This document shows, in pieces, positions 26,312-39,250 of a DNA stretch of 40,516 nt (position 1 is its first letter; each line of letters opens with the position of its first letter). The translations under genes were made by a program, and so were the position numbers. Origin of the DNA: Minisyncoccota bacterium (GTDB lineage Bacteria > Patescibacteriota > Minisyncoccia > Phycocordibacterales > SBAW01); assembly GCA_035546615.1 (NCBI GenBank), contig DASZWM010000001.1:1-40516 (forward strand), written 5' to 3'. The notes beneath the pieces were generated by a model that worked only from the letters and a program-made list of their open reading frames with translations, was not told where the DNA came from and searched no databases.

Positions 26312-27976
26312 ATGCACGTCGATAGTGGGGCACTGCGGGATTTTTTGATTTCAAACGGGCTTGTTACCCGCGCGCAATTGGCTGATGTTCTTTCCGCAGG
26401 ACAGGGAGAGGCCCTGTACGACACGCTTGCCGCGCGGGGCGTGGTCTCGCAGGACGAATTGCGCCGCGCGGCGGCGCATGTTGCAGGCGTTTCTTTCGTA
26501 TCGCTCTCGCCGCACGACATAGCCCTGGAGACCTTGAGCCTCATTCCCGAGCCGCTATCGCGCGTTCACAATGTCGTGGCTTTCAGGCAGGAGGGAAATG
26601 TCGTCGAGGTGGCGATGCTCGATCTCGGTTCGCTTGAGCATCTCGCTTTCCTGCGCGACCAGAAAGGCTTTACGGTTCTGCCGCGCCTCACTACTTCGGA
26701 TTCGATAAAACAAACGCTTCGGGCGTACCAGCAGCGCTTAAAGGAGAATTTCAAGGCGCTCCTCCAGAACAGCGCCCATGCGGTCGATGCGCTTATCCGC
26801 CACGCGCTTCTTTCAAACGCCGGGAGCGTTCATCTTGATCTGCATCAGACGGGATTACTCGTGCGCTACCGCATACAGGGCATGCTCCACGAAGCGATGC
26901 TTTTGCCGAAGGAAGCCGCGCATATCTTCGAGCGCATCAAGGAGGCGGCGAATCTCTCGCTTACGCTCCACGTGCCGCAGGAAGGAAGTTTCAAGACGGA
27001 GCTCAGCGGCGGGGAATCGGTCAGCGTGCGGGTCGCTGTGTCGCCGACTCTTTCCGGCGACCGAATGACGCTGCACTTGGCGCCCGAGCGCTCCCGCCGG
27101 CAGGGCTTTGCCCTTGAGTCGCTCGGCCTGCACGGCCGCGCGCTTGAGGATGCGCACGCGCTGCTCCGGACGCGCGACGGGCTTATAATCGTTGCCGGTC
27201 CTCTTAACGCAGGCAAGACAACGACCCTCTATACGCTGCTCGATATCCTGAGCGAGCGCGGCGTATCCGTTGCCACGGTGGAAGAGAATATAGAGTACGC
27301 GCTGCCGCATGTTGCCCAGACGCAAGTGCGCTCCGAACTCGGGCTCACTTCGGCCGCCGCTTTGCGCGCGGTCCTTCGGCAGGATCCGGATATCGTGATG
27401 CTGGGCGACGTTGCCGACGAGCAGACTGCCGCTTTAGCTGCGCAGGCGGCTTCGCGCGGGGTGCTGGTCTTGATGGGTATTGAAGCGTCCTCGGCTGCCG
27501 CGGCGGTAGGGAAGCTGCGCGACTGGAGGATCCCGTCCTCGCTCGTCGCTTCTGTACTTAAGGGCGCCATAGGCGTGCAGGTCGTGCAGAAACTTTGCAC
27601 GAAAGAACGCGAAGAGTACCGGCTCGCGCGGATCGAGAGCGCGCCGCTCGAGCCCAAGGCGAACTTCGGCCGCGTGCTTGCGGCGCTCAAGGAAGAGGGG
27701 ATAGTGGGGAAGGATATGCAGTGGAAGGAGCTTCTTTTCGCGCGCGCTTCCTCCTGCGAGGAGTGCGCCGGAGGATATCAGGGCAAGATCGGGCTCCAGG
27801 AAGTGCTTCCAGTCACTGCTCCTATAAAGGATGCATTAAAGGAAGGCGCGGGAGCAGAAAGAGTAGAGGAAATAGCGCGAGAGGACGGCATGCTCACCAT
27901 AGCCGAAGACGGATTATTTAAAGCCGCGCAAGGCACTACGAGCGTCGAGGAAGTAGTGCGGGTAGTTCAAGCGTAG
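26312..27976 (+). CDS. Type II secretion / type IV pilus assembly ATPase (GspE/PilB family) with a T2SSE_N-like N-domain; catalytic motifs appear degenerate
   Basis: Walker A GPLNAGKTTTLY; RQDPDIVMLGDVAD in the Walker B region; C-terminal CEECAGGYQGKIGLQEV finger; His-box position reads LMGIEAS. Confidence 0.8.
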   Translation: MHVDSGALRDFLISNGLVTRAQLADVLSAGQGEALYDTLAARGVVSQDELRRAAAHVAGVSFVSLSPHDIALETLSLIPEPLSRVHNVVAFRQEGNVVEVAMLDLGSLEHLAFLRDQKGFTVLPRLTTSDSIKQTLRAYQQRLKENFKALLQNSAHAVDALIRHALLSNAGSVHLDLHQTGLLVRYRIQGMLHEAMLLPKEAAHIFERIKEAANLSLTLHVPQEGSFKTELSGGESVSVRVAVSPTLSGDRMTLHLAPERSRRQGFALESLGLHGRALEDAHALLRTRDGLIIVAGPLNAGKTTTLYTLLDILSERGVSVATVEENIEYALPHVAQTQVRSELGLTSAAALRAVLRQDPDIVMLGDVADEQTAALAAQAASRGVLVLMGIEASSAAAAVGKLRDWRIPSSLVASVLKGAIGVQVVQKLCTKEREEYRLARIESAPLEPKANFGRVLAALKEEGIVGKDMQWKELLFARASSCEECAGGYQGKIGLQEVLPVTAPIKDALKEGAGAERVEEIAREDGMLTIAEDGLFKAAQGTTSVEEVVRVVQA

Positions 27977-28011: not shown

Positions 28012-28176
28012 TTATTTGAGGAGGGGGATTGTATGTGCGTACCCCTCCGCTTTCGCCCGCGTCTATAGTTGGACAGCGGGCATTCTTATTGGAAAATAAC
28101 GAAGTCAGCTGAGTATATTTTCCTGTATCCCGAGGAGCGCGAGGGGCGTATCCAATACAATGGTATATTTTCAGAG

Positions 28177-28935
28177 ATGGCTAAAAAGCGCCTTGTCGCC
28201 GGAAACTGGAAAATGTATATGGCCGATGCCGCCGAGGCCCGCAAGTTCGCGGTGGGTCTCCGCCGCCGCACCCGCGGCTTCTCGGGGGTAGAGGTATTCC
28301 TTGCCCCGCCCCTTCCTTTTATAGCCGATATCGCGAAAGCGCTTGAAAGCTCGCCAATTGAGGTGGGCGCTCAGATTATATCCGCGCATGAGGACGCGCC
28401 GCATACCGGCGAAGTATCGGGCCGTATGCTCAAGGGTGCGGGCGCTTCTTTCGTCATCGTCGGCCATTCGGAGCGCCGCGCTTCCGGCGAGACGAACGAC
28501 GTGGTGCGCGCAAGCCTCGAGCGCGCGGTGGAGGCGGGCCTTACGCCGGTCCTGTGCGTCGGGGAGCGCGAGCGCGAGGCCGACGGCGAACACTTTGCTT
28601 TTATCGAAGCCCAGCTTTCGTCCGCTTTGAACAATTTTCCGAAGAACCTCCTCAAAAAGCTTGTCGTGGCCTACGAGCCGGTGTGGGCGATAGGGAAGTC
28701 GTCCGTCGGCGCGATGAAGGCGCCCGAGCTTGAGGAAATGGTCATATTCGTGCGCAAGACGCTTACGGATCTGCTTGACCGCAAGGCCGCGCTCAATATC
28801 CGCGTGCTGTACGGGGGTTCGGTCGAGCCCGGCAACGCGTCGGAGCTTCTCGCGGCCGGCGTCAACGGGTTCTTGGTGGGCCATGCGAGCGCGGATCTGA
28901 ATTCGTTCGTGCAGATCATACAGGCATGCAAGTAA
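28177..28935 (+). CDS. tpiA: Triosephosphate isomerase (start at MAKKRLVAGNWKMY)
   Basis: AGNWKM, VIVGHSERR and YGGS TIM signatures. Confidence 0.9.
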   Translation: MAKKRLVAGNWKMYMADAAEARKFAVGLRRRTRGFSGVEVFLAPPLPFIADIAKALESSPIEVGAQIISAHEDAPHTGEVSGRMLKGAGASFVIVGHSERRASGETNDVVRASLERAVEAGLTPVLCVGEREREADGEHFAFIEAQLSSALNNFPKNLLKKLVVAYEPVWAIGKSSVGAMKAPELEEMVIFVRKTLTDLLDRKAALNIRVLYGGSVEPGNASELLAAGVNGFLVGHASADLNSFVQIIQACK

Positions 28936-29894
28936 CTTCAATACGAGACGCGGATGTTTCCGGCAAACGCGTACTGGTGCGCGTTGATTTCAATGTGCCG
29001 ATGAAAGACGGACAGGTCGTAGACGACGCTCGTATCAAGGCGGCGCTGCCCACTATTGGTTTTTTGCACGAGCGCGGCGCCGCGCAGATAATCCTGCTCG
29101 CGCATCTTGGCCGGCCGGATGGGAAAGTGGTGGAAGACCTGCGTCTGGCGCCGATTGAGGCGCGCGCGAGGGCGCTCATAAACGCGCCGTTTGAGATGCA
29201 TGAGAACCTGCGCTTTGATGCCCGTGAGGAGGCCAATGACGAAGGGTTCGCGAAGGAGCTTGCCGGCCTCGGCGACATATTCGTGAACGAGGCGTTCGCC
29301 GATTCCCACCGCGCGCACGCTTCCATTGTCGGGATTCCGAAGTTCCTGCCCAGCTATGCCGGGCTCAGGTTCGAGGAGGAAGTGACAAAGCTTTCCGCCG
29401 CGCTTACGCCGCCACCGGGCGCCGTCGCCATTATCGGCGGGGCAAAAATAGAGACGAAGGCGCCGCTTATCGAGAAATTCGCCGCCACCTACAGCCTCAT
29501 ATTGGTGGGAGGCGCCATCGCTAACGAGTACACCGCAAAGACCAATAACGTGATGTTGCCGCAGGACGGCGTCAGCGACGCAACACATGTGGCCGATATC
29601 GGCCCCGAGACCGCCCGCGCGTGGACCGAAATCATCGCGCAGGCGCCGTTTGTCGTATGGAACGGCACTATGGGTATGTACGAGCAGTCCGCGTTCATCG
29701 GAGGCACGGACGCCATAGCCAAGGCTATTATCGGCAGCCGCGCCGTCGCCATCATCGGGGGCGGCGACACCGCGGCGGCGGTCGCGAAGTTCGCATTCGA
29801 TCCCGCGCGCATTTTCATCTCAACCGGCGGGGGAGCGATGCTCGAATTTTTGATACAAGGCACATTGCCCGGCATTGAGGCGCTCAAGCGGTAG
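28926..29894 (+). CDS. pgk: Phosphoglycerate kinase (short form, 322 aa)
   Basis: VRVDFNVP, HLGRP, GGGD/GGGA motifs; overlaps the tpiA stop by 10 nt. Confidence 0.85.
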   Translation: MQVTSIRDADVSGKRVLVRVDFNVPMKDGQVVDDARIKAALPTIGFLHERGAAQIILLAHLGRPDGKVVEDLRLAPIEARARALINAPFEMHENLRFDAREEANDEGFAKELAGLGDIFVNEAFADSHRAHASIVGIPKFLPSYAGLRFEEEVTKLSAALTPPPGAVAIIGGAKIETKAPLIEKFAATYSLILVGGAIANEYTAKTNNVMLPQDGVSDATHVADIGPETARAWTEIIAQAPFVVWNGTMGMYEQSAFIGGTDAIAKAIIGSRAVAIIGGGDTAAAVAKFAFDPARIFISTGGGAMLEFLIQGTLPGIEALKR

Positions 29895-30162: not shown

Positions 30163-30171
30163 CCAGACGAA

Positions 30172-30198
30172 GGCCCGCCGGATGGCGGGCCTTTTTGC
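30172..30198 (+). terminator. Rho-independent terminator (GGCCCGCC-GGAT-GGCGGGCC + TTTTT)
   Basis: Perfect 8-bp GC stem plus T5. Confidence 0.7.
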
Positions 30199-30225: not shown

Positions 30226-30576
30226 ATGCCGCCGGAATCGCAACCGCAACCGCAGCAGCCCCGCATTCTTTTTCCGAAAGCGCATCTTTTTGTCGCGCTT
30301 GCGGCCGGCGCCTTGTGCGTCGCGGGCGGCACGGCGGCCCTTTTCTTTTCCCGCTCGCCGGACGTTTCTCCTGCGGCGCAGGCTCCAGAGCCTCCGGCAT
30401 ACGACAGCCGCTCTCTTACCGCCGAGGAAAAATTGAAACTCATCTCGGAGCATCCCGCCCCTCCGGGCCTTTCCGCCGAGGAGAAGGAAGCCGCGTACGA
30501 ACACAGCGGTGCAACAGCTCCGGAAGGCCTTACGTCGCAGGAAAAGCAGCGCATGGCCGAAGAAGCGCAGAACTGA
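30226..30576 (+). CDS. Small membrane-anchored protein with three (L)(T/S)AEEK-type repeats
   Basis: AAGGAG SD; TM helix LFVALAAGALCVAGGTAALFF; repeats LTAEEKLKLI / LSAEEKEAAY / LTSQEKQRMA. Confidence 0.55.
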   Translation: MPPESQPQPQQPRILFPKAHLFVALAAGALCVAGGTAALFFSRSPDVSPAAQAPEPPAYDSRSLTAEEKLKLISEHPAPPGLSAEEKEAAYEHSGATAPEGLTSQEKQRMAEEAQN

Positions 30577-30582
30577 TCACGC

Positions 30583-31533
30583 ATGAAACCTGCTACGACT
30601 TTAAAACGGCATATGCGAACTGCGCTTGCATGGATGGTCGCGCTCGCGGCTGGCATAGCGGTGCTCGCGACGCTTTCTCGTGTCATGCCGGCGCCCCCCC
30701 TTTACGCGCAGGTGCCCGCCGCCAACGGAGGCGTCCTTGCGCACGCCGCATGGAGCTCGAATATTGGCTGGGTAGAGTTTTCGGGAACAGGCTGGGGCGT
30801 GTATCTTTCGCCAAGCGACGGCACTTCGCTCCTCGGCTACGCCTGGAGCTCGAACGTGGGATGGATACAGTTCGGCGCGACATCGTGCGGCGCGGCGCCA
30901 AGCATAAGCGGCACCAAGCCCACCGTATCGCTCACGGGCTGGGCCAAGGCGCTCGCCACGGGCGGCGGCTGGAATGGCTGCATCAAACTTTCTAATACCG
31001 GCTCGCCGTCATATGGCGTCGCCGTCTCCTCGTATTCGCAGGCCAGTCAAGGGGGCTTGCTTCAAGGCTACGCGTGGGGGAGCGATGTGGTCGGCTGGCT
31101 TCGGTTCGATCCGGCGCCCGGCGGCGTGTATCTCAAGTTTACCTCCTGCAACAACGGCCTCGACGATGACCATGACGGCCTCGCCGACGCGGCCGACTCC
31201 GACTGCCCCGACCTGACTTCAAACGGCGAAGTAGTGACGAATCCGGCCGCGACGGTCGATATCAAGGCTAACGGTAAGGACACGCTGTCGGTGCGTCAGG
31301 ACTCGAGCGTGAGCGTCACCTGGAGCACGAGCCTCGTCGGAGGCTGCACGCTGACCGACCCTTCCGGAACCAGCGCTGTTTCCGATCAGAATACCGTGGG
31401 CTCGGCCTATACTGTCTCGGCCGCGAGCGGCTTCACTCTCGCCTGCCGCGAGCTCGTGGGCGGCCTGCCTACGGGCCCCGCGCATAGCGATAGGGTCGTG
31501 GTGCACCTGCTTCCTATGTACCGCGAGATTTAG
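30583..31533 (+). CDS. Secreted/anchored protein with three WSSN(I/V)GW(I/V)xF tandem repeats, a thrombospondin-type-3-like Ca-binding motif and a C-terminal beta-rich domain
   Basis: N-terminal hydrophobic segment; repeats AWSSNIGWVEF, GYAWSSNVGWIQF, GYAWGSDVVGWLRF; DDDHDGLADAADSDCPD matches DxDxDGxxDxxDxCP. Confidence 0.65.
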   Translation: MKPATTLKRHMRTALAWMVALAAGIAVLATLSRVMPAPPLYAQVPAANGGVLAHAAWSSNIGWVEFSGTGWGVYLSPSDGTSLLGYAWSSNVGWIQFGATSCGAAPSISGTKPTVSLTGWAKALATGGGWNGCIKLSNTGSPSYGVAVSSYSQASQGGLLQGYAWGSDVVGWLRFDPAPGGVYLKFTSCNNGLDDDHDGLADAADSDCPDLTSNGEVVTNPAATVDIKANGKDTLSVRQDSSVSVTWSTSLVGGCTLTDPSGTSAVSDQNTVGSAYTVSAASGFTLACRELVGGLPTGPAHSDRVVVHLLPMYREI

Positions 31534-31548
31534 TGATAAAATAAACTC

Positions 31549-32697
31549 ATGTTCAAAAAGACGCGCGAAGAATTCCTCCGGTTTTCAAAAGCTTTCCTGC
31601 TAGCCGCTTTAGTTCTTCTGGGAAGCGCGGCGCTCGCCGATTGGACCGCGCCCGTTGCCGCGCCACCCACCTGCGCTTCCGGCAACCAGGGCTGCGACGC
31701 GCCCATCAACGTAAGCGCAACAGCACAAACCAAAACGGGCAATCTCACCATCGGCTCAGGCGGCACGAACGTGCTCATTTCCGCCACCGGTTATATCTGG
31801 CCTACTATCCTGAATGTCGGCAGCACCTATCCAACCACGCCCCCTCCCAACAGCATTTGCCTATCGGGTTCGTGCATTACCGCCTGGAGCCAAGCCGGCG
31901 GAGGCGGGACTGACTATCAGGCCTTCACTACTGCGGGTGCTGGGTCATGCCCCGGCACTGGCACTAATTGCTGGACGAAGCCAAGCGGCACCACCGCGTC
32001 ATCACGTACGCTCATAGAGTGCTGGGGAGCGGGCGGCGGAGGCAGCGCTAATGGCGGGGGTGGGGGCGGCGCATATCGCGGGCGCTGGGTCCTGACCTCA
32101 TCTCTCGGCGCGACCGAACCGGTTACTATCCCTGGCACAAGCAACACAGCAACCGCAGGAGCGGCAGCTTCTTTCGGAACCTGGGCAACAGCACCGGGGG
32201 GTGGGGCAAGCAACACGACAAGCGGCGGAGGCGGAGGCGGAGGTGGCGGGTATGATGCGGCAGGCGGCAATGCCGGCGTCGGCGGCGGGGGCTATGCCGC
32301 CAGCGGCGGTAACGGCGGCAATGCCGCGTATAGTTACGGCCTTGCAGGCCTGTGCAGCCTTTCTTCCAACGTGGCACTGCGTACCGGTACTGACGCTACC
32401 AGCGGAGGCGGAGGCGGAGGCGCGGCAGGCTGCGAGGGCGCAGACAAAGGAGGCGACTCCATTACCGGCGGCGGGGGTGGCGGCGGCAACCATGGAGACG
32501 GTAACCCGAAGAACGGCGGCAACTCAATATGGGGCGGCGGAGGAGGCTCAGCCGGGTCTTCAGGAGGAAGCGGAGGGCGCAGTATGTACGGCGGCGCGGG
32601 CGGCGCGACCGGTGTTGCGGGTACCGCGCCGGGCGGCGGCGGCGGGCGCAACGCCCAAGGAGCCCGCGGCGAATGCAGGGTTACGACGTTTAAGTAG
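31549..32697 (+). CDS. Secreted glycine-rich protein (Gly_rich / polyglycine-II-like), with an N-terminal Cys-containing domain
   Basis: Sec signal peptide ...AALA; IECWGAGGGGS, GGGGGGGGGYDAAGGNAGVGGGGY and further Gly runs; antisense frames are Pro-rich artefacts. Confidence 0.65.
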   Translation: MFKKTREEFLRFSKAFLLAALVLLGSAALADWTAPVAAPPTCASGNQGCDAPINVSATAQTKTGNLTIGSGGTNVLISATGYIWPTILNVGSTYPTTPPPNSICLSGSCITAWSQAGGGGTDYQAFTTAGAGSCPGTGTNCWTKPSGTTASSRTLIECWGAGGGGSANGGGGGGAYRGRWVLTSSLGATEPVTIPGTSNTATAGAAASFGTWATAPGGGASNTTSGGGGGGGGGYDAAGGNAGVGGGGYAASGGNGGNAAYSYGLAGLCSLSSNVALRTGTDATSGGGGGGAAGCEGADKGGDSITGGGGGGGNHGDGNPKNGGNSIWGGGGGSAGSSGGSGGRSMYGGAGGATGVAGTAPGGGGGRNAQGARGECRVTTFK

Positions 32698-35780: not shown

Positions 35781-37136
35781 GTGGCAAATCGTTTCATATT
35801 GGGTCTGCTTATTTTGGCCTATGTTGGCGCGCTTATCGTGCGGACAGATTTTCTTTTACGAAGCGAGGCAGGGGAGACGCTTAAGAATTACGTCGGCACT
35901 TCTGCGACTGTTGAAGGGAGGGTCGTGAACGACCCAGAACATCGCGACACGTCGCTCCACGTCAACGTCGAAGTTTCTAAAATAAATGATGAAGCTGCAA
36001 GCGGCGTATTGCTTGCGATACTGCCGCGAGAAGCGCAACTTCAGTACGGAGACAGAGTCGCGCTTAAAGGAAAAGTAACCGCGCCGGAATCTTTTGAAAC
36101 TGATACCGGGAGAATATTTGATTACGCCGGCTACCTGCGCGTGCAGGGAGTATCGGCGATGCTTAAATACGGAACGATTGAAGAAATAAATCCCGGCGGA
36201 TGGTCGCTCCAAAAAACGCTGTTCGATATCAAGCACGGGTTCGAACACTCGCTTGAGCGAATGCTGCCGGAGCCGGACAACTCGCTGCTCGAAGGGGTAC
36301 TCCTCGGCGAGCGGCGCGGATTGCCCGACAGCCTCAACCATGCGTTTATCGTCTCAAGCCTGGTGCATGTTGTCGTGCTCTCCGGCTACAACATTTCTAT
36401 CGTCGCCAATGCGATGCTGTACGCGACCAGCATTTTGCCTCGCACGCTTAGCTACGGGCTCGGCGGCGTGCTGATGGTCCTCTTCGCTATCATGACGGGC
36501 GCCGGCGCCACGACGGTACGCGCGTGCGCCATGGGTATCATCGCGATAGTGGCGCAGTATATGCGCCGCAGGGCCGTAGCTATGCGCAGCCTCATTGCGG
36601 CGGCGGGCGCCATGGCGTTGTGGAATCCGCTCATTATCCTGCACGACACTTCCTTCATATTGAGCGTGCTGGCGACCTTCGGGCTCATTACGCTGTCGCC
36701 GTGGGTGGAAACATACCTCTCTTGGATGCCGCGGTGGAAATATCTGGACGTACGCGCCATAGCCGCCTCTACCATTGCGGTGCAGATATACATATTGCCC
36801 GCGCTGCTGTACTTCATGGGCATACTTTCGTTCGTAGCGCTTCCGGCCAATATGCTGGCGCTCCCGGTCGTGCCGTTCGCGATGCTCTTAGGTTTTTTTG
36901 CAGGGGTTGTGGGGCTGATCCAGCCGGTTCTTGGGCTGCCGCTGGCATTCCTCGCGGATATTCTGTTGCGCTGGATGATGTTGGTGGCAAACACCGCCGC
37001 ATCCCTGCCGTTTTCTTCAGCCACCATAGCCGCGTTCCCTGCATGGGTCGCAGTTGCGGTCTATATTCCCCTGACGGGCTTCGCTATCTGGCTATATCGA
37101 AACGCTTCTCGAGAACAGACCAGTTCAAGTTCTTAA
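35781..37136 (+). CDS. comEC: ComEC/Rec2 DNA-uptake channel: DUF4131 OB-fold plus Competence domain, lacking the C-terminal metallo-beta-lactamase domain
   Basis: N-terminal OB-like region, then a polytopic TM region with LLGERRGLPD...FIVSSLVHVVVLSGYNIS typical of the Competence domain. Confidence 0.8.
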   Translation: MANRFILGLLILAYVGALIVRTDFLLRSEAGETLKNYVGTSATVEGRVVNDPEHRDTSLHVNVEVSKINDEAASGVLLAILPREAQLQYGDRVALKGKVTAPESFETDTGRIFDYAGYLRVQGVSAMLKYGTIEEINPGGWSLQKTLFDIKHGFEHSLERMLPEPDNSLLEGVLLGERRGLPDSLNHAFIVSSLVHVVVLSGYNISIVANAMLYATSILPRTLSYGLGGVLMVLFAIMTGAGATTVRACAMGIIAIVAQYMRRRAVAMRSLIAAAGAMALWNPLIILHDTSFILSVLATFGLITLSPWVETYLSWMPRWKYLDVRAIAASTIAVQIYILPALLYFMGILSFVALPANMLALPVVPFAMLLGFFAGVVGLIQPVLGLPLAFLADILLRWMMLVANTAASLPFSSATIAAFPAWVAVAVYIPLTGFAIWLYRNASREQTSSSS

Positions 37137-37832: not shown

Positions 37833-38312
37833 ATGCGCTATCTATTAGCCGCAGTCGGAGCCTGTGTGGCCTTGGCTGCTGTATCATCAGCGAATGCATT
37901 CGACGGGCTTTATCCGAAGATCGTGTCTGTGCCGCAGGATGATGCGGGTTATGGCGGAGAAACAACAATATCGCCATTACCCGATCCTCCTCTAGCGGAC
38001 GAAGATAACGTCAACGGGACTGATGATGTCGACCTTGTTGTTGAAGGCAAGGGTGACATCATCTTCTGTACCGCCGAGGACTACTACTGCTACGCCAGCT
38101 CTTCCTGGAAAGAGGCTCGAGAAAAGGCCCTTCCTCTCGTTGAGGCGGGAATCTTTTTTCCACTTCCCGGAGCTCGCGTGCTGGAGGAGACCGAGGTTGT
38201 CTGGCTGTTCGATTCCGACGTTCTGATCGAGCGGGCTTCCCGTTTCAGTCATGAACCGCCGTATGACCGGCCGTCGGTCGGCCGAGAGCCGATCGTCGCA
38301 TCGGCACCATGA
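37833..38312 (+). CDS. Secreted hypothetical protein, 159 aa, translationally coupled (ATGA) to the downstream MBL gene
   Basis: CAGGAGG SD; Sec signal peptide MRYLLAAVGACVALAAVSSANA; acidic mature part. Confidence 0.5.
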   Translation: MRYLLAAVGACVALAAVSSANAFDGLYPKIVSVPQDDAGYGGETTISPLPDPPLADEDNVNGTDDVDLVVEGKGDIIFCTAEDYYCYASSSWKEAREKALPLVEAGIFFPLPGARVLEETEVVWLFDSDVLIERASRFSHEPPYDRPSVGREPIVASAP

Positions 38313-39250
38313 AGGAAGTCGTGAGCCCGGACGACCATATGTCGCCCGGGTTCCTGCTTTTTATGTATACTTTCCGCATGCGGTTTTTGCGGCAGTATTT
38401 TTCATACATCGTGTTCGTGGCGCTTGTCCTTGCCTCCATCGGCATCTGGAGCGCGGTATTCGCCGCAACGCCCAGCGGCGTCCTTACGTTCGCGGTACTC
38501 GATATCGGGCAAGGAGACTCCTTATATATAGAGTCTCCTGTGGGTACGCAGATACTCATTGACGGGGGGCCTGACGGATCGGTTTTGCACGAGCTGCCGA
38601 AAGTGATGAGCTTTTCAGACCGCTCCATTGATGCGGTCATCGCGACGCATCCGGACGCGGACCATATCGCAGGGCTGGTCGATGTGCTCAAGCGCTACAG
38701 CGTCGGTGATTTTCTCGAGCCGGGCATCGCCAAGAGCACGGTTACCGCGCAGGCGCTTGAAGACGGCGTGGACGCAGCAGATATTCCGCGCATCAAAGCT
38801 ATGCGCGGCATGTGGCTGGACCTCGGCGGGGGAGCGCGCCTCGACATTTTGTCGCCGGACTTTGACGTTTCGACCCTTAAGCCCGACGAGGCAAACGAAG
38901 GCTGTGTTGTTTCAAGGCTCACCTACGGCGCCACATCCGTTCTGCTCATGTGCGACGCGCCGATGGACGTGGAAGGTCACTTGATGGGTATCGAACCCGT
39001 TGCCGATCTGAAGAGCAACATTTTAAAAGTAGGCCATCACGGCTCCGCAGGCTCGACGGGGGACGCGTTCGTTTCTGAAGTGGATCCGTCCGTGGCGGTT
39101 ATCTCGGTAGGGGCCGGGAACCGGTACGGTCATCCTACCCGGCAAACGCTCGATACGCTTGCAGGCCACAATATAAAAACCCTCCGGACCGACGAGGAGG
39201 GGACTATCGAGTTTATATCGAACGGGGAGACCTTCGAGCGGATTAGATAA
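38309..39250 (+). CDS. Stand-alone membrane-anchored metallo-beta-lactamase domain of ComEC type (the ComEC C-terminal domain as a separate gene)
   Basis: TM helix, then VLDIGQGDSLYI, HPDADH and VGHHGS motifs typical of the ComEC MBL domain. Confidence 0.7.
   Translation: MKEVVSPDDHMSPGFLLFMYTFRMRFLRQYFSYIVFVALVLASIGIWSAVFAATPSGVLTFAVLDIGQGDSLYIESPVGTQILIDGGPDGSVLHELPKVMSFSDRSIDAVIATHPDADHIAGLVDVLKRYSVGDFLEPGIAKSTVTAQALEDGVDAADIPRIKAMRGMWLDLGGGARLDILSPDFDVSTLKPDEANEGCVVSRLTYGATSVLLMCDAPMDVEGHLMGIEPVADLKSNILKVGHHGSAGSTGDAFVSEVDPSVAVISVGAGNRYGHPTRQTLDTLAGHNIKTLRTDEEGTIEFISNGETFERIR

Follow-up and report, generated by a model that had tools for sequence, protein, structure and literature searches.

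What kind of domain is built from the tandem tryptophan-rich repeat encoded at 30583..31533 of a contig from a Minisyncoccota bacterium (assembly GCA_035546615.1, contig DASZWM010000001.1), and does the acidic calcium-type motif that follows the repeat belong to that domain? We address the question within a window consisting of positions 1 to 40,516 of the forward strand of the contig, the whole stretch of DNA analyzed here (40,516 nt), to which all coordinates of the locus refer. The open reading frame (ORF) in question, hereafter the target ORF, lies on the plus strand, as do all of the features within it; it is complete, encodes 316 amino acid residues (aa) without an internal stop, and reads from N- to C-terminus as a signal peptide or anchor, a predicted barrel of four Trp-rich hairpins, an acidic Cys-bracketed loop, an immunoglobulin (Ig)-like domain, and a C-terminal tail. 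We conclude with good confidence that it encodes an exported protein whose barrel domain, made of four hairpins, belongs to an uncatalogued family; what the barrel does is a more tentative matter.

A preliminary description of the sequence had drawn attention to three conserved Trp cores spaced by Gly/Ser-rich segments. The three cores are present where it placed them, namely AWSSNIGWVEF (aa 56-66, nt 30748-30780), YAWSSNVGWIQF (aa 86-97, nt 30838-30873), and YAWGSDVVGWLRF (aa 163-175, nt 31069-31107), and 9 of the 11 Trp residues of the protein fall within aa 45-190. Pairwise local alignments of the three repeat segments score 56-71, compared with 21-22 ± 5 when the domain is shuffled (z = 7-10; the real scores exceed every one of 500 shuffles), and shuffling together with the size of the family described below rules out chance or low complexity as the source of the repeats. 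The Trp repeats are real, and there are four copies rather than three. Together they make up a domain of ~140 aa (aa 45-186, 30715..31140) composed of hairpin 1, GVLAHAAWSSNIGWVEF (aa 50-66, 30730..30780, cross-strand pair W57-W63); hairpin 2, SLLGYAWSSNVGWIQF (aa 82-97, 30826..30873, cross-strand pair W88-W94); a degenerate hairpin 3, TVSLTGWAKALATGGGWNGCIKL (aa 114-136, 30922..30990), located between the second and third of the copies originally noticed; and hairpin 4, GGLLQGYAWGSDVVGWLRF (aa 157-175, 31051..31107, cross-strand pair W165-W172). Taken alone in the target protein, hairpin 3 has no sequence significance (z about 1); in the family it is conserved with the consensus GWARALS..GGWDGWIxL, where Arg or Lys (95%) at position 122 stands opposite Trp or Cys at position 133 and replaces the Trp-Trp pair, and its counterpart in relatives outside the Patescibacteria is canonical. 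The Gly/Ser-rich spacers exist as well, and are more than linkers, since they contain the conserved return strand Y-G-V-x-V of each hairpin.

The repeat had been called unrecognised, with the proviso that it might yet map onto a named repeat family, and we were unable to find any such family. Pfam-A contains no match to the repeat of the target protein, and none to 38 sequences of the domain even at E <= 10; further scans, with NCBIfam and PHROGs and with several relatives, yielded no family covering the Trp repeat; the domain profile matched no PDB chain at E <= 10, and a PDB sequence search with the single protein returned only a weak Teneurin match, on the acidic loop; and literature text searches for the repeat motif, for tryptophan-rich repeats of Patescibacteria, and for the names of the acidic repeat turned up nothing relevant. 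The preliminary description had also proposed a survey of distribution and domain partners. A profile search of 1.84 billion cluster representatives identified 9,364 at E <= 1e-3 and 7,515 at E <= 1e-10, mostly from Patescibacteria, and at least 532 loci in GTDB species genomes encode the barrel domain. Among the best 80 GTDB matches, 79 belong to Patescibacteria lineages or unclassified metagenome-assembled genomes (MAGs), and the remaining one is on a 5-kb contig of a Dehalococcoidales MAG. The proteins most similar to that of the target ORF are all unnamed and come from Paceibacterota, Parcubacteria, and Patescibacteria MAGs. No barrel relative could be found in 2.9 million viral contigs, and a phage origin of the barrel was rejected on these grounds. 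The domain partners found in the relatives (Laminin_G_3, PKD, Big, cadherin-like, He_PIG, TSP3_bac, MopE, and Lcl_C) are all extracellular.

Because the copies in multi-copy relatives number 4, 8, 12, or 16, the unit of evolution and folding is the quartet rather than the single repeat. In one such relative, P0127, Pfam TSP3_bac repeats follow each of four quartets. P0127, P0149, and P0192, which are metagenomic and not Patescibacteria-like, and P0165 from a Desulfobacterales MAG represent the long adhesin-like proteins outside the Patescibacteria in which strict quartets alternate with TSP3_bac repeats or MopE motifs. The barrel is a general extracellular bead, commonest in Patescibacteria, where it comes immediately after the signal peptide. 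The family, large and hitherto uncatalogued, is new, but its general type, a small beta-barrel bead in surface proteins, is a familiar one.

AlphaFold prediction of the whole target protein from a 107-sequence alignment gave a predicted local distance difference test score (pLDDT) of 84.8 and an all-beta region at aa 51-185. Foldseek searches with this full-length model returned only matches to the Ig-like C-terminal part, and the barrel was therefore predicted again by itself: the AlphaFold 2 (AF2) model of aa 45-190 from 38 sequences has a pLDDT of 91.6 and a predicted template modelling score of 0.85, the five models ranging from 88 to 91.6. Its DSSP string is compatible with eight long strands. 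In each repeat a long strand x-L-x-G-Y-A-W-S would lead through a tight turn S-N-I into a return strand G-W-I-x-F, which would continue past a bulge or insertion as Y-G-V-x-V, and the last segment, V-Y-L-K-F (aa 182-186), would close onto the first strand. The four hairpins are thus predicted to form one conserved domain folded as an eight-stranded up-and-down barrel, with the meander of the OmpA-like barrels. Structural comparison of the model places it among proteins of this class, with scores of 9.6 for the designed transmembrane barrel 6x9z, 9.2 for OprF, 8.7 for NspA, 8.1 for OmpW and PagL, 7.8 for hemophilin, and 5.3-7.2 for HpuA, YceI, and avidins. The likeness to the N-terminal domain of OmpA/OprF, NspA, OmpW, PagL, and 6x9z, and more distantly to hemophilin, avidins, and YceI, is confined to architecture: about 100-113 residues superpose, at 7-16% identity and without a sequence relationship, and the barrel described here differs from the known ones in being made of four sequence repeats with pseudo-four-fold symmetry. 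Foldseek against the PDB with the barrel-domain model, the search on an AlphaFold model that had been suggested at the outset, found nothing significant. The predicted fold class is thus clear, but there is no detectable homologue of known structure.

Column statistics for the 107 sequences reveal a strict alternation along the strands. One face is conserved and hydrophobic or small (L52/G54/A56/S58, G62/I64/F66, Y71/V73/L75, and the equivalent positions of the other repeats); the other is variable and polar (positions 53, 65, 74, 84, 96, and 174, up to 40% charged), and also bears the invariant pairs W57/W63, W88/W94, and W165/W172 together with the conserved Tyr residues 55, 86, and 163. Positions 65, 74, 96, and 174, which are 12-40% charged, share the face of the Trp pairs. 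Because hydrophobic or small residues are separated by face from variable polar residues and Trp, the pattern is most simply read as that of a soluble barrel, its core packed and its aromatic pairs forming a belt on the outside. The strand register given by the model and the alignment puts the two members of each Trp pair directly opposite one another across the hairpin turn, much as in trpzip peptides, which likewise have cross-strand Trp-Trp pairs beside a tight turn on one hairpin face; the trpzips, however, are isolated designed peptides, whereas the hairpins here are part of a natural barrel and their pairing is read from register rather than coordinates. The turn S58-S-N60-I-G62-W63 also resembles the S-x-D/N-x-G of the Asp-box or BNR repeat (S-x-D-x-G-x-T-W), but Trp follows directly after Gly, and neither the target protein nor the 38 domain sequences match the Pfam BNR family.

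Behind the barrel lies the acidic loop C189-NNGLDDDHDGLADAADSD-C208 (31147..31206), a putative Ca2+-binding linker module. The DxDxDGxxDxxD stretch that the preliminary description had seen there is present, and the consensus is fitted by eye, in the translation, by D194-D-D196-H-D198-G199-L-A-D202-A-A-D205. Its identification as a thrombospondin type 3 repeat could not be sustained: Pfam TSP_3 and TSP3_bac match neither the target protein (E <= 1) nor six close relatives (E <= 0.1), and MopE does not match either; TSP3_bac occurs only in distant relatives outside the Patescibacteria. The best match of CNNGLDDDHDGLADAADSDC is instead NCBIfam NF033662, acid_disulf_rpt, the acidic double-disulfide repeat (E = 2.3e-7, 30.4 bits). 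This match covers a single copy and positions 5-28 of the 32 in the profile, and its score is below the whole-protein cut-off of 41 bits; the target loop has only two Cys residues (C189 and C208), whereas the name of NF033662 implies two disulfides per repeat. Two relatives with three matched stretches each, P0013 and P0030, score 95.2 and 59 bits, above the cut-off. The Teneurin-4 Ca-binding Cys-rich domain (PDB 7plp) aligns weakly to the loop (E = 6.3), and what NF033662, this Teneurin domain, TSP3_bac, and MopE have in common with the target is an acidic D-x-D-x-D-G-x-x-D-x-x-D loop closed by cysteines. Nor are such acidic motifs rare in bacteria, as had been supposed, since curated bacterial models exist.

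The Trp repeats had also been thought to flank the calcium site, whereas all four lie N-terminal to the loop and would close into a separate barrel domain. The loop is modelled with low confidence (pLDDT about 47-57 in AF2) and occurs in 17 of 107 close relatives; in view of this distribution and of the NF033662 match, it counts as an optional linker, of a module type that already has a name, and lies outside the repeat domain. The combination of the repeat with an acidic Ca-type motif, by contrast, was well observed, and it recurs in unrelated lineages, where barrel proteins of other phyla carry TSP3_bac or MopE motifs at the same linker positions. That such linkers recur behind barrels in distant lineages suggests that the pairing of barrel and acidic Ca-type linker is favoured, and the loop may well bind Ca2+ and so stiffen the connection between beads.

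The remainder of the protein is consistent with a life outside the cell. A basic stretch and a hydrophobic helix ending in ...LYAQ (aa 1-43, 30583..30711; helix at aa 5-34 in the AF2 model) would serve as a Sec signal peptide or signal anchor, and relatives have classical signal peptides (for example ...SFVSA|DG). This N-terminal helix, taken with the exclusively extracellular domain partners of the relatives, indicates that the target protein is probably built for export and is extracellular, and an extracellular location makes the surface- or ligand-binding role proposed in the preliminary description a reasonable one. The Ig-like beta-sandwich domain (aa 224-309, 31252..31509) has two conserved Cys residues and an AF2 pLDDT of 86-97, and the structures that Foldseek matches to it are solely of the Ig, PKD, and CARDB types, with weak E-values.

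The protein ends in the tail PMYREI-COOH (aa 311-316, 31513..31530), which conforms to a family consensus at the extreme C-terminus, h-x-P-x-[FIY]-[EQR]-E-[IF]-COOH, with no transmembrane segment after it. Of the 76 family proteins that are complete, drawn from the fetched loci together with the window, 51 have Glu at position -2, as do at least 90% of the sequences in alignment A1; ten more of the 76 have Pro at -2, mostly in endings of the K-E-[IV]-x-P-[FR] type. None of the NCBIfam C-terminal signal models matches the tail. One of them, NF058595 ("invert_tail, putative C-terminal anchoring domain"), was considered and set aside, as it matches, weakly, only P0012 (E = 0.006) and neither the target nor eight other C-terminal regions. 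The same tail is found on neighboring secreted proteins that have no barrel (L003 3707-5908, ending ...LFPGYIEI, and L006 3415-4587, ending ...VLPEFQET). The tail looks like a portable recognition or sorting signal.

The target ORF appears to be the middle gene of three, all on the plus strand. Upstream, after pgk, we read from the sequence a terminator-like GC hairpin with a perfect 8-bp stem followed by TTTTT (GGCCCGCC-GGAT-GGCGGGCC, 30171..30198, plus strand), which is not listed by a consensus terminator scan; TATACT/TATAAG-like boxes and an AAGGAG ribosome-binding site lie between the hairpin and an ATG at 30226, and hairpin and AAGGAG site would mark the start of a separate three-gene unit. 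The first gene (30226..30576) ends 6 nt before the target ORF and encodes a 116-aa single-pass membrane protein, the partner, with three acidic repeats of the form [LS][TS]xEEKxxhhxxh (LTAEEKLKLISEH, LSAEEKEAAYEHS, and LTSQEKQRMAEEA); its homologues have two or three [ST]-x-E-E-K-x-x-I-L-x-x-L repeats, and Pfam, NCBIfam, and PHROGs contain no family for it. The third gene (31549..32697) starts 15 nt past the target stop codon and encodes a 382-aa secreted Gly-rich protein with an N-terminal motif W-x-x-P...PINVS...Q-x-K-x-G-x-L and a weak PHROG match to a tail fibre assembly family (phrog_863, E = 1e-4). Given gaps of 6 and 15 nt, the terminator-like hairpin upstream, and the AAGGAG site, we read the genes for the EEK-repeat membrane protein, the barrel protein, and the tail-fibre-like Gly-rich protein as one operon.

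Versions of this three-gene cassette recur across Paceibacteria, often beside nusA and a PilB-type ATPase gene. In 33 of 83 loci a homologue of the partner, identified by jackhmmer, lies directly adjacent to the barrel gene (same strand, <300 nt); this count excludes a few opposite-strand matches which seemingly belong to another acidic family. The Glu tail is found in 29 of the 33 loci with the partner gene and in 22 of 42 without it (Fisher p = 0.0012, uncorrected for phylogeny). Proteins with the N-terminal motif of the fibre-like family, A-W-[TS]-x-P...P-[IV]-N-V-[GS]...Q-x-K-x-G-x-L, are encoded on the same strand and no more than 3.5 kb away in 24 to 33 of 83 loci, according to the filter applied. 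Such PINV-motif relatives include L005 6427-6906, 6924-8081, and 8096-10186 (with Gly_rich_2 in L005) and L003 7327-7890, which has a Peptidase_S74 tail-spike chaperone domain; they are fibre-like surface proteins in a cellular, non-prophage context.

Farther out, the neighbors in the window are nusA, the PilB-type ATPase gene (T2SSE and MshEN domains), tpiA, a short pgk, and genes for a HIT protein, RecJ, and a ComEC-type competence protein; an orthologue of the target with 50% identity in GCA_035546575.1 has the same gene order. The pgk ORF (28926-29894, plus strand) has only 322 aa, matches Pfam PGK in three separate stretches, and looks shortened, and its start overlaps the stop of tpiA (28069-28935) by 10 nt; the pgk orthologue in L001 likewise has 322 aa. 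The ComEC-type protein (35781-37136, plus strand; DUF4131 and Competence domains) and a metallo-beta-lactamase-fold protein (38309-39250, plus strand) are encoded ~1.2 kb apart with other ORFs between them, and may represent a split ComEC.

Four other explanations have to be set against a soluble surface bead. The proximity of the PilB-type ATPase gene (26312-27976, plus strand, 2.6 kb upstream of the barrel gene) raises the question of whether the target protein is an accessory or substrate of a type IV pilus or type II secretion-like system, for instance a pilus-associated adhesin with a Ca-regulated head like that of PilY1. In 12 of 82 loci the barrel gene has a PilB-type ATPase gene no more than 4 kb away, and in four of these the ATPase gene follows it directly (L010 4768-6507, L013 4896-6644, L046 1583-3322, and L082 5074-6828); L006 has PilM and PilN genes close to its barrel gene, and pilin genes are adjacent in L057 and L066. 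Pilin genes are near the barrel gene in only 3 of the 82 loci, however; nusA is within 4 kb in 20 of the 82, and 7 of the 12 PilB loci also carry nusA, so that the linkage may be inherited gene order; and the target protein has no class III (G|FTLIE) pilin leader. We consider a role in such a pilus unlikely. The barrel might alternatively be a calycin-like carrier of the lipocalin, avidin, YceI, or hemophilin type, holding a hydrophobic molecule scavenged from the host (a lipid, isoprenoid, or cofactor). Patescibacteria depend on their hosts for lipids, the conserved inward-facing Gly, Ala, and Ser could leave a cavity, and the top weak Foldseek matches are lipocalins; yet the Foldseek probabilities are 0.12 or lower, conservation is even over the four repeats rather than focused on a single pocket, and a module that occurs in tandem in giant adhesins would be unusual for a carrier, which makes this explanation, in our judgment, quite improbable.

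The aromatic belt lends itself to two further interpretations. In the one, the repeats would be distant choline- or cell-wall-binding hairpins of the LytA/CbpA type, forming an open superhelical solenoid whose aromatic cages bind choline or a cationic wall substituent. There is a resemblance: both are short Gly-Trp-rich hairpins with about two Trp and one Tyr in extracellular proteins of monoderms, and the CW_binding_1 consensus (GW...G.WYYF...G.M..GW) has a similar hairpin length and a similar pattern of two Trp and one Tyr. In the target, moreover, Trp and Tyr share a face with variable polar residues, and the protein is extracellular. But Pfam CW_binding_1, Choline_bind_2, and Choline_bind_3 match neither the target nor the 38 relatives, even at E <= 10, and the copy number is quantised in fours, which an open solenoid would not require; these are fixed quartets predicted to close as a barrel, and not open solenoids of variable length. 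Although homology of this kind is very improbable, the choline-binding repeats are a plausible analogy for multivalent aromatic binding sites. In the other, the domain would be a membrane-inserted eight-stranded barrel like OmpA, OmpW, or NspA, in the envelope of the bacterium or in a host membrane, and the Trp belt would be its aromatic girdle. A ring of conserved aromatics does lie near one end of the strands, as would suit such a barrel, whereas conserved hydrophobic or small residues on one face and variable, partly charged residues on the opposite face are the pattern of a soluble barrel; judged from the alignment, the lipid-facing hydrophobic exterior and polar interior of OmpA-like barrels are not found here. 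The domain is, further, the N-terminal module of a secreted multidomain protein with Ig-like domains downstream on the same chain, it occurs as tandem beads between TSP3 repeats inside long soluble adhesin-like proteins, its sequence identity to known barrels is the 7-16% noted above, and Patescibacteria are regarded as lacking both an outer membrane and the beta-barrel assembly machinery (BAM). We regard membrane insertion as highly improbable.

The explanation that we prefer, and think somewhat more probable than not when taken as a whole from barrel to operon, is that the product of the target ORF is exported by the Sec route to the cell surface of a member of the Patescibacteria (Paceibacteria-type), and that its four hairpins would close into a compact eight-stranded barrel, the conserved L/G/A/S, I/F, and Y/V/I positions making up the core. 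From each hairpin a Trp-Trp pair (in hairpin 3, Arg-Trp) would point outward, in most cases accompanied by a Tyr, and the resulting aromatic belt might act as a multivalent docking surface for a glycan of the envelope or of a host, for an envelope polymer, or for another protein, candidates being the small membrane protein encoded alongside and a fibre protein; this docking or binding role is possible, and we put it forward tentatively. The barrel would be a constant anchoring or assembly head behind which the middle parts (Ig, PKD, cadherin-like, and lectin domains) vary, the acidic DxDxDG loop would be an optional Ca2+-stiffened linker, and the tail and the small membrane protein would take part in anchoring or assembly. 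Paceibacteria attached to their hosts are reported to express secreted proteins that contain adhesion-related domains of the Ig-like and PKD types (bioRxiv 10.1101/2023.08.25.554742). One could go further and suppose that the tail, or the amphipathic repeats of the partner, dock on the aromatic belt to build or tether surface fibres with which the cell attaches to its host, perhaps acting together with the PilB-type ATPase locus. That the barrel, the EEK-repeat membrane protein, the tail, and the tail-fibre-like proteins constitute an undescribed Patescibacteria-specific system for surface anchoring or assembly is a more speculative proposition, which we think rather doubtful.

We wish to stress that several considerations tell against the explanation just outlined. 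The barrel fold comes from one prediction method, and the inward-pointing face is assigned by conservation and polarity rather than by coordinates; the exposed Trp-Trp pairs could be purely structural, stabilizing the hairpins, and not a binding site; over half of the loci have no partner gene in the immediate surroundings of the barrel gene; and the neighborhood statistics are uncorrected for genome relatedness, with many loci ending at contig edges.

Much of bacterial diversity belongs to the Patescibacteria, which live attached to other cells and whose surface proteins are almost entirely unannotated. The barrel module is among the commoner secreted domains of Patescibacteria, with thousands of clusters and hundreds of species-level genomes, and elsewhere it is a bead in giant adhesins. 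Its definition as a four-hairpin barrel gives curators a clean domain boundary, and offers structural biology a small, highly repetitive natural barrel with hairpins that resemble Trp zippers. For the ultra-small bacteria themselves, it brings to light a cassette of three genes that is conserved, and a C-terminal tail that is a candidate for recognition, both of which may serve envelope assembly or host attachment; and should barrel, tail, and partner prove to be a dedicated Patescibacteria surface-assembly system, the interest of the family would rise accordingly.

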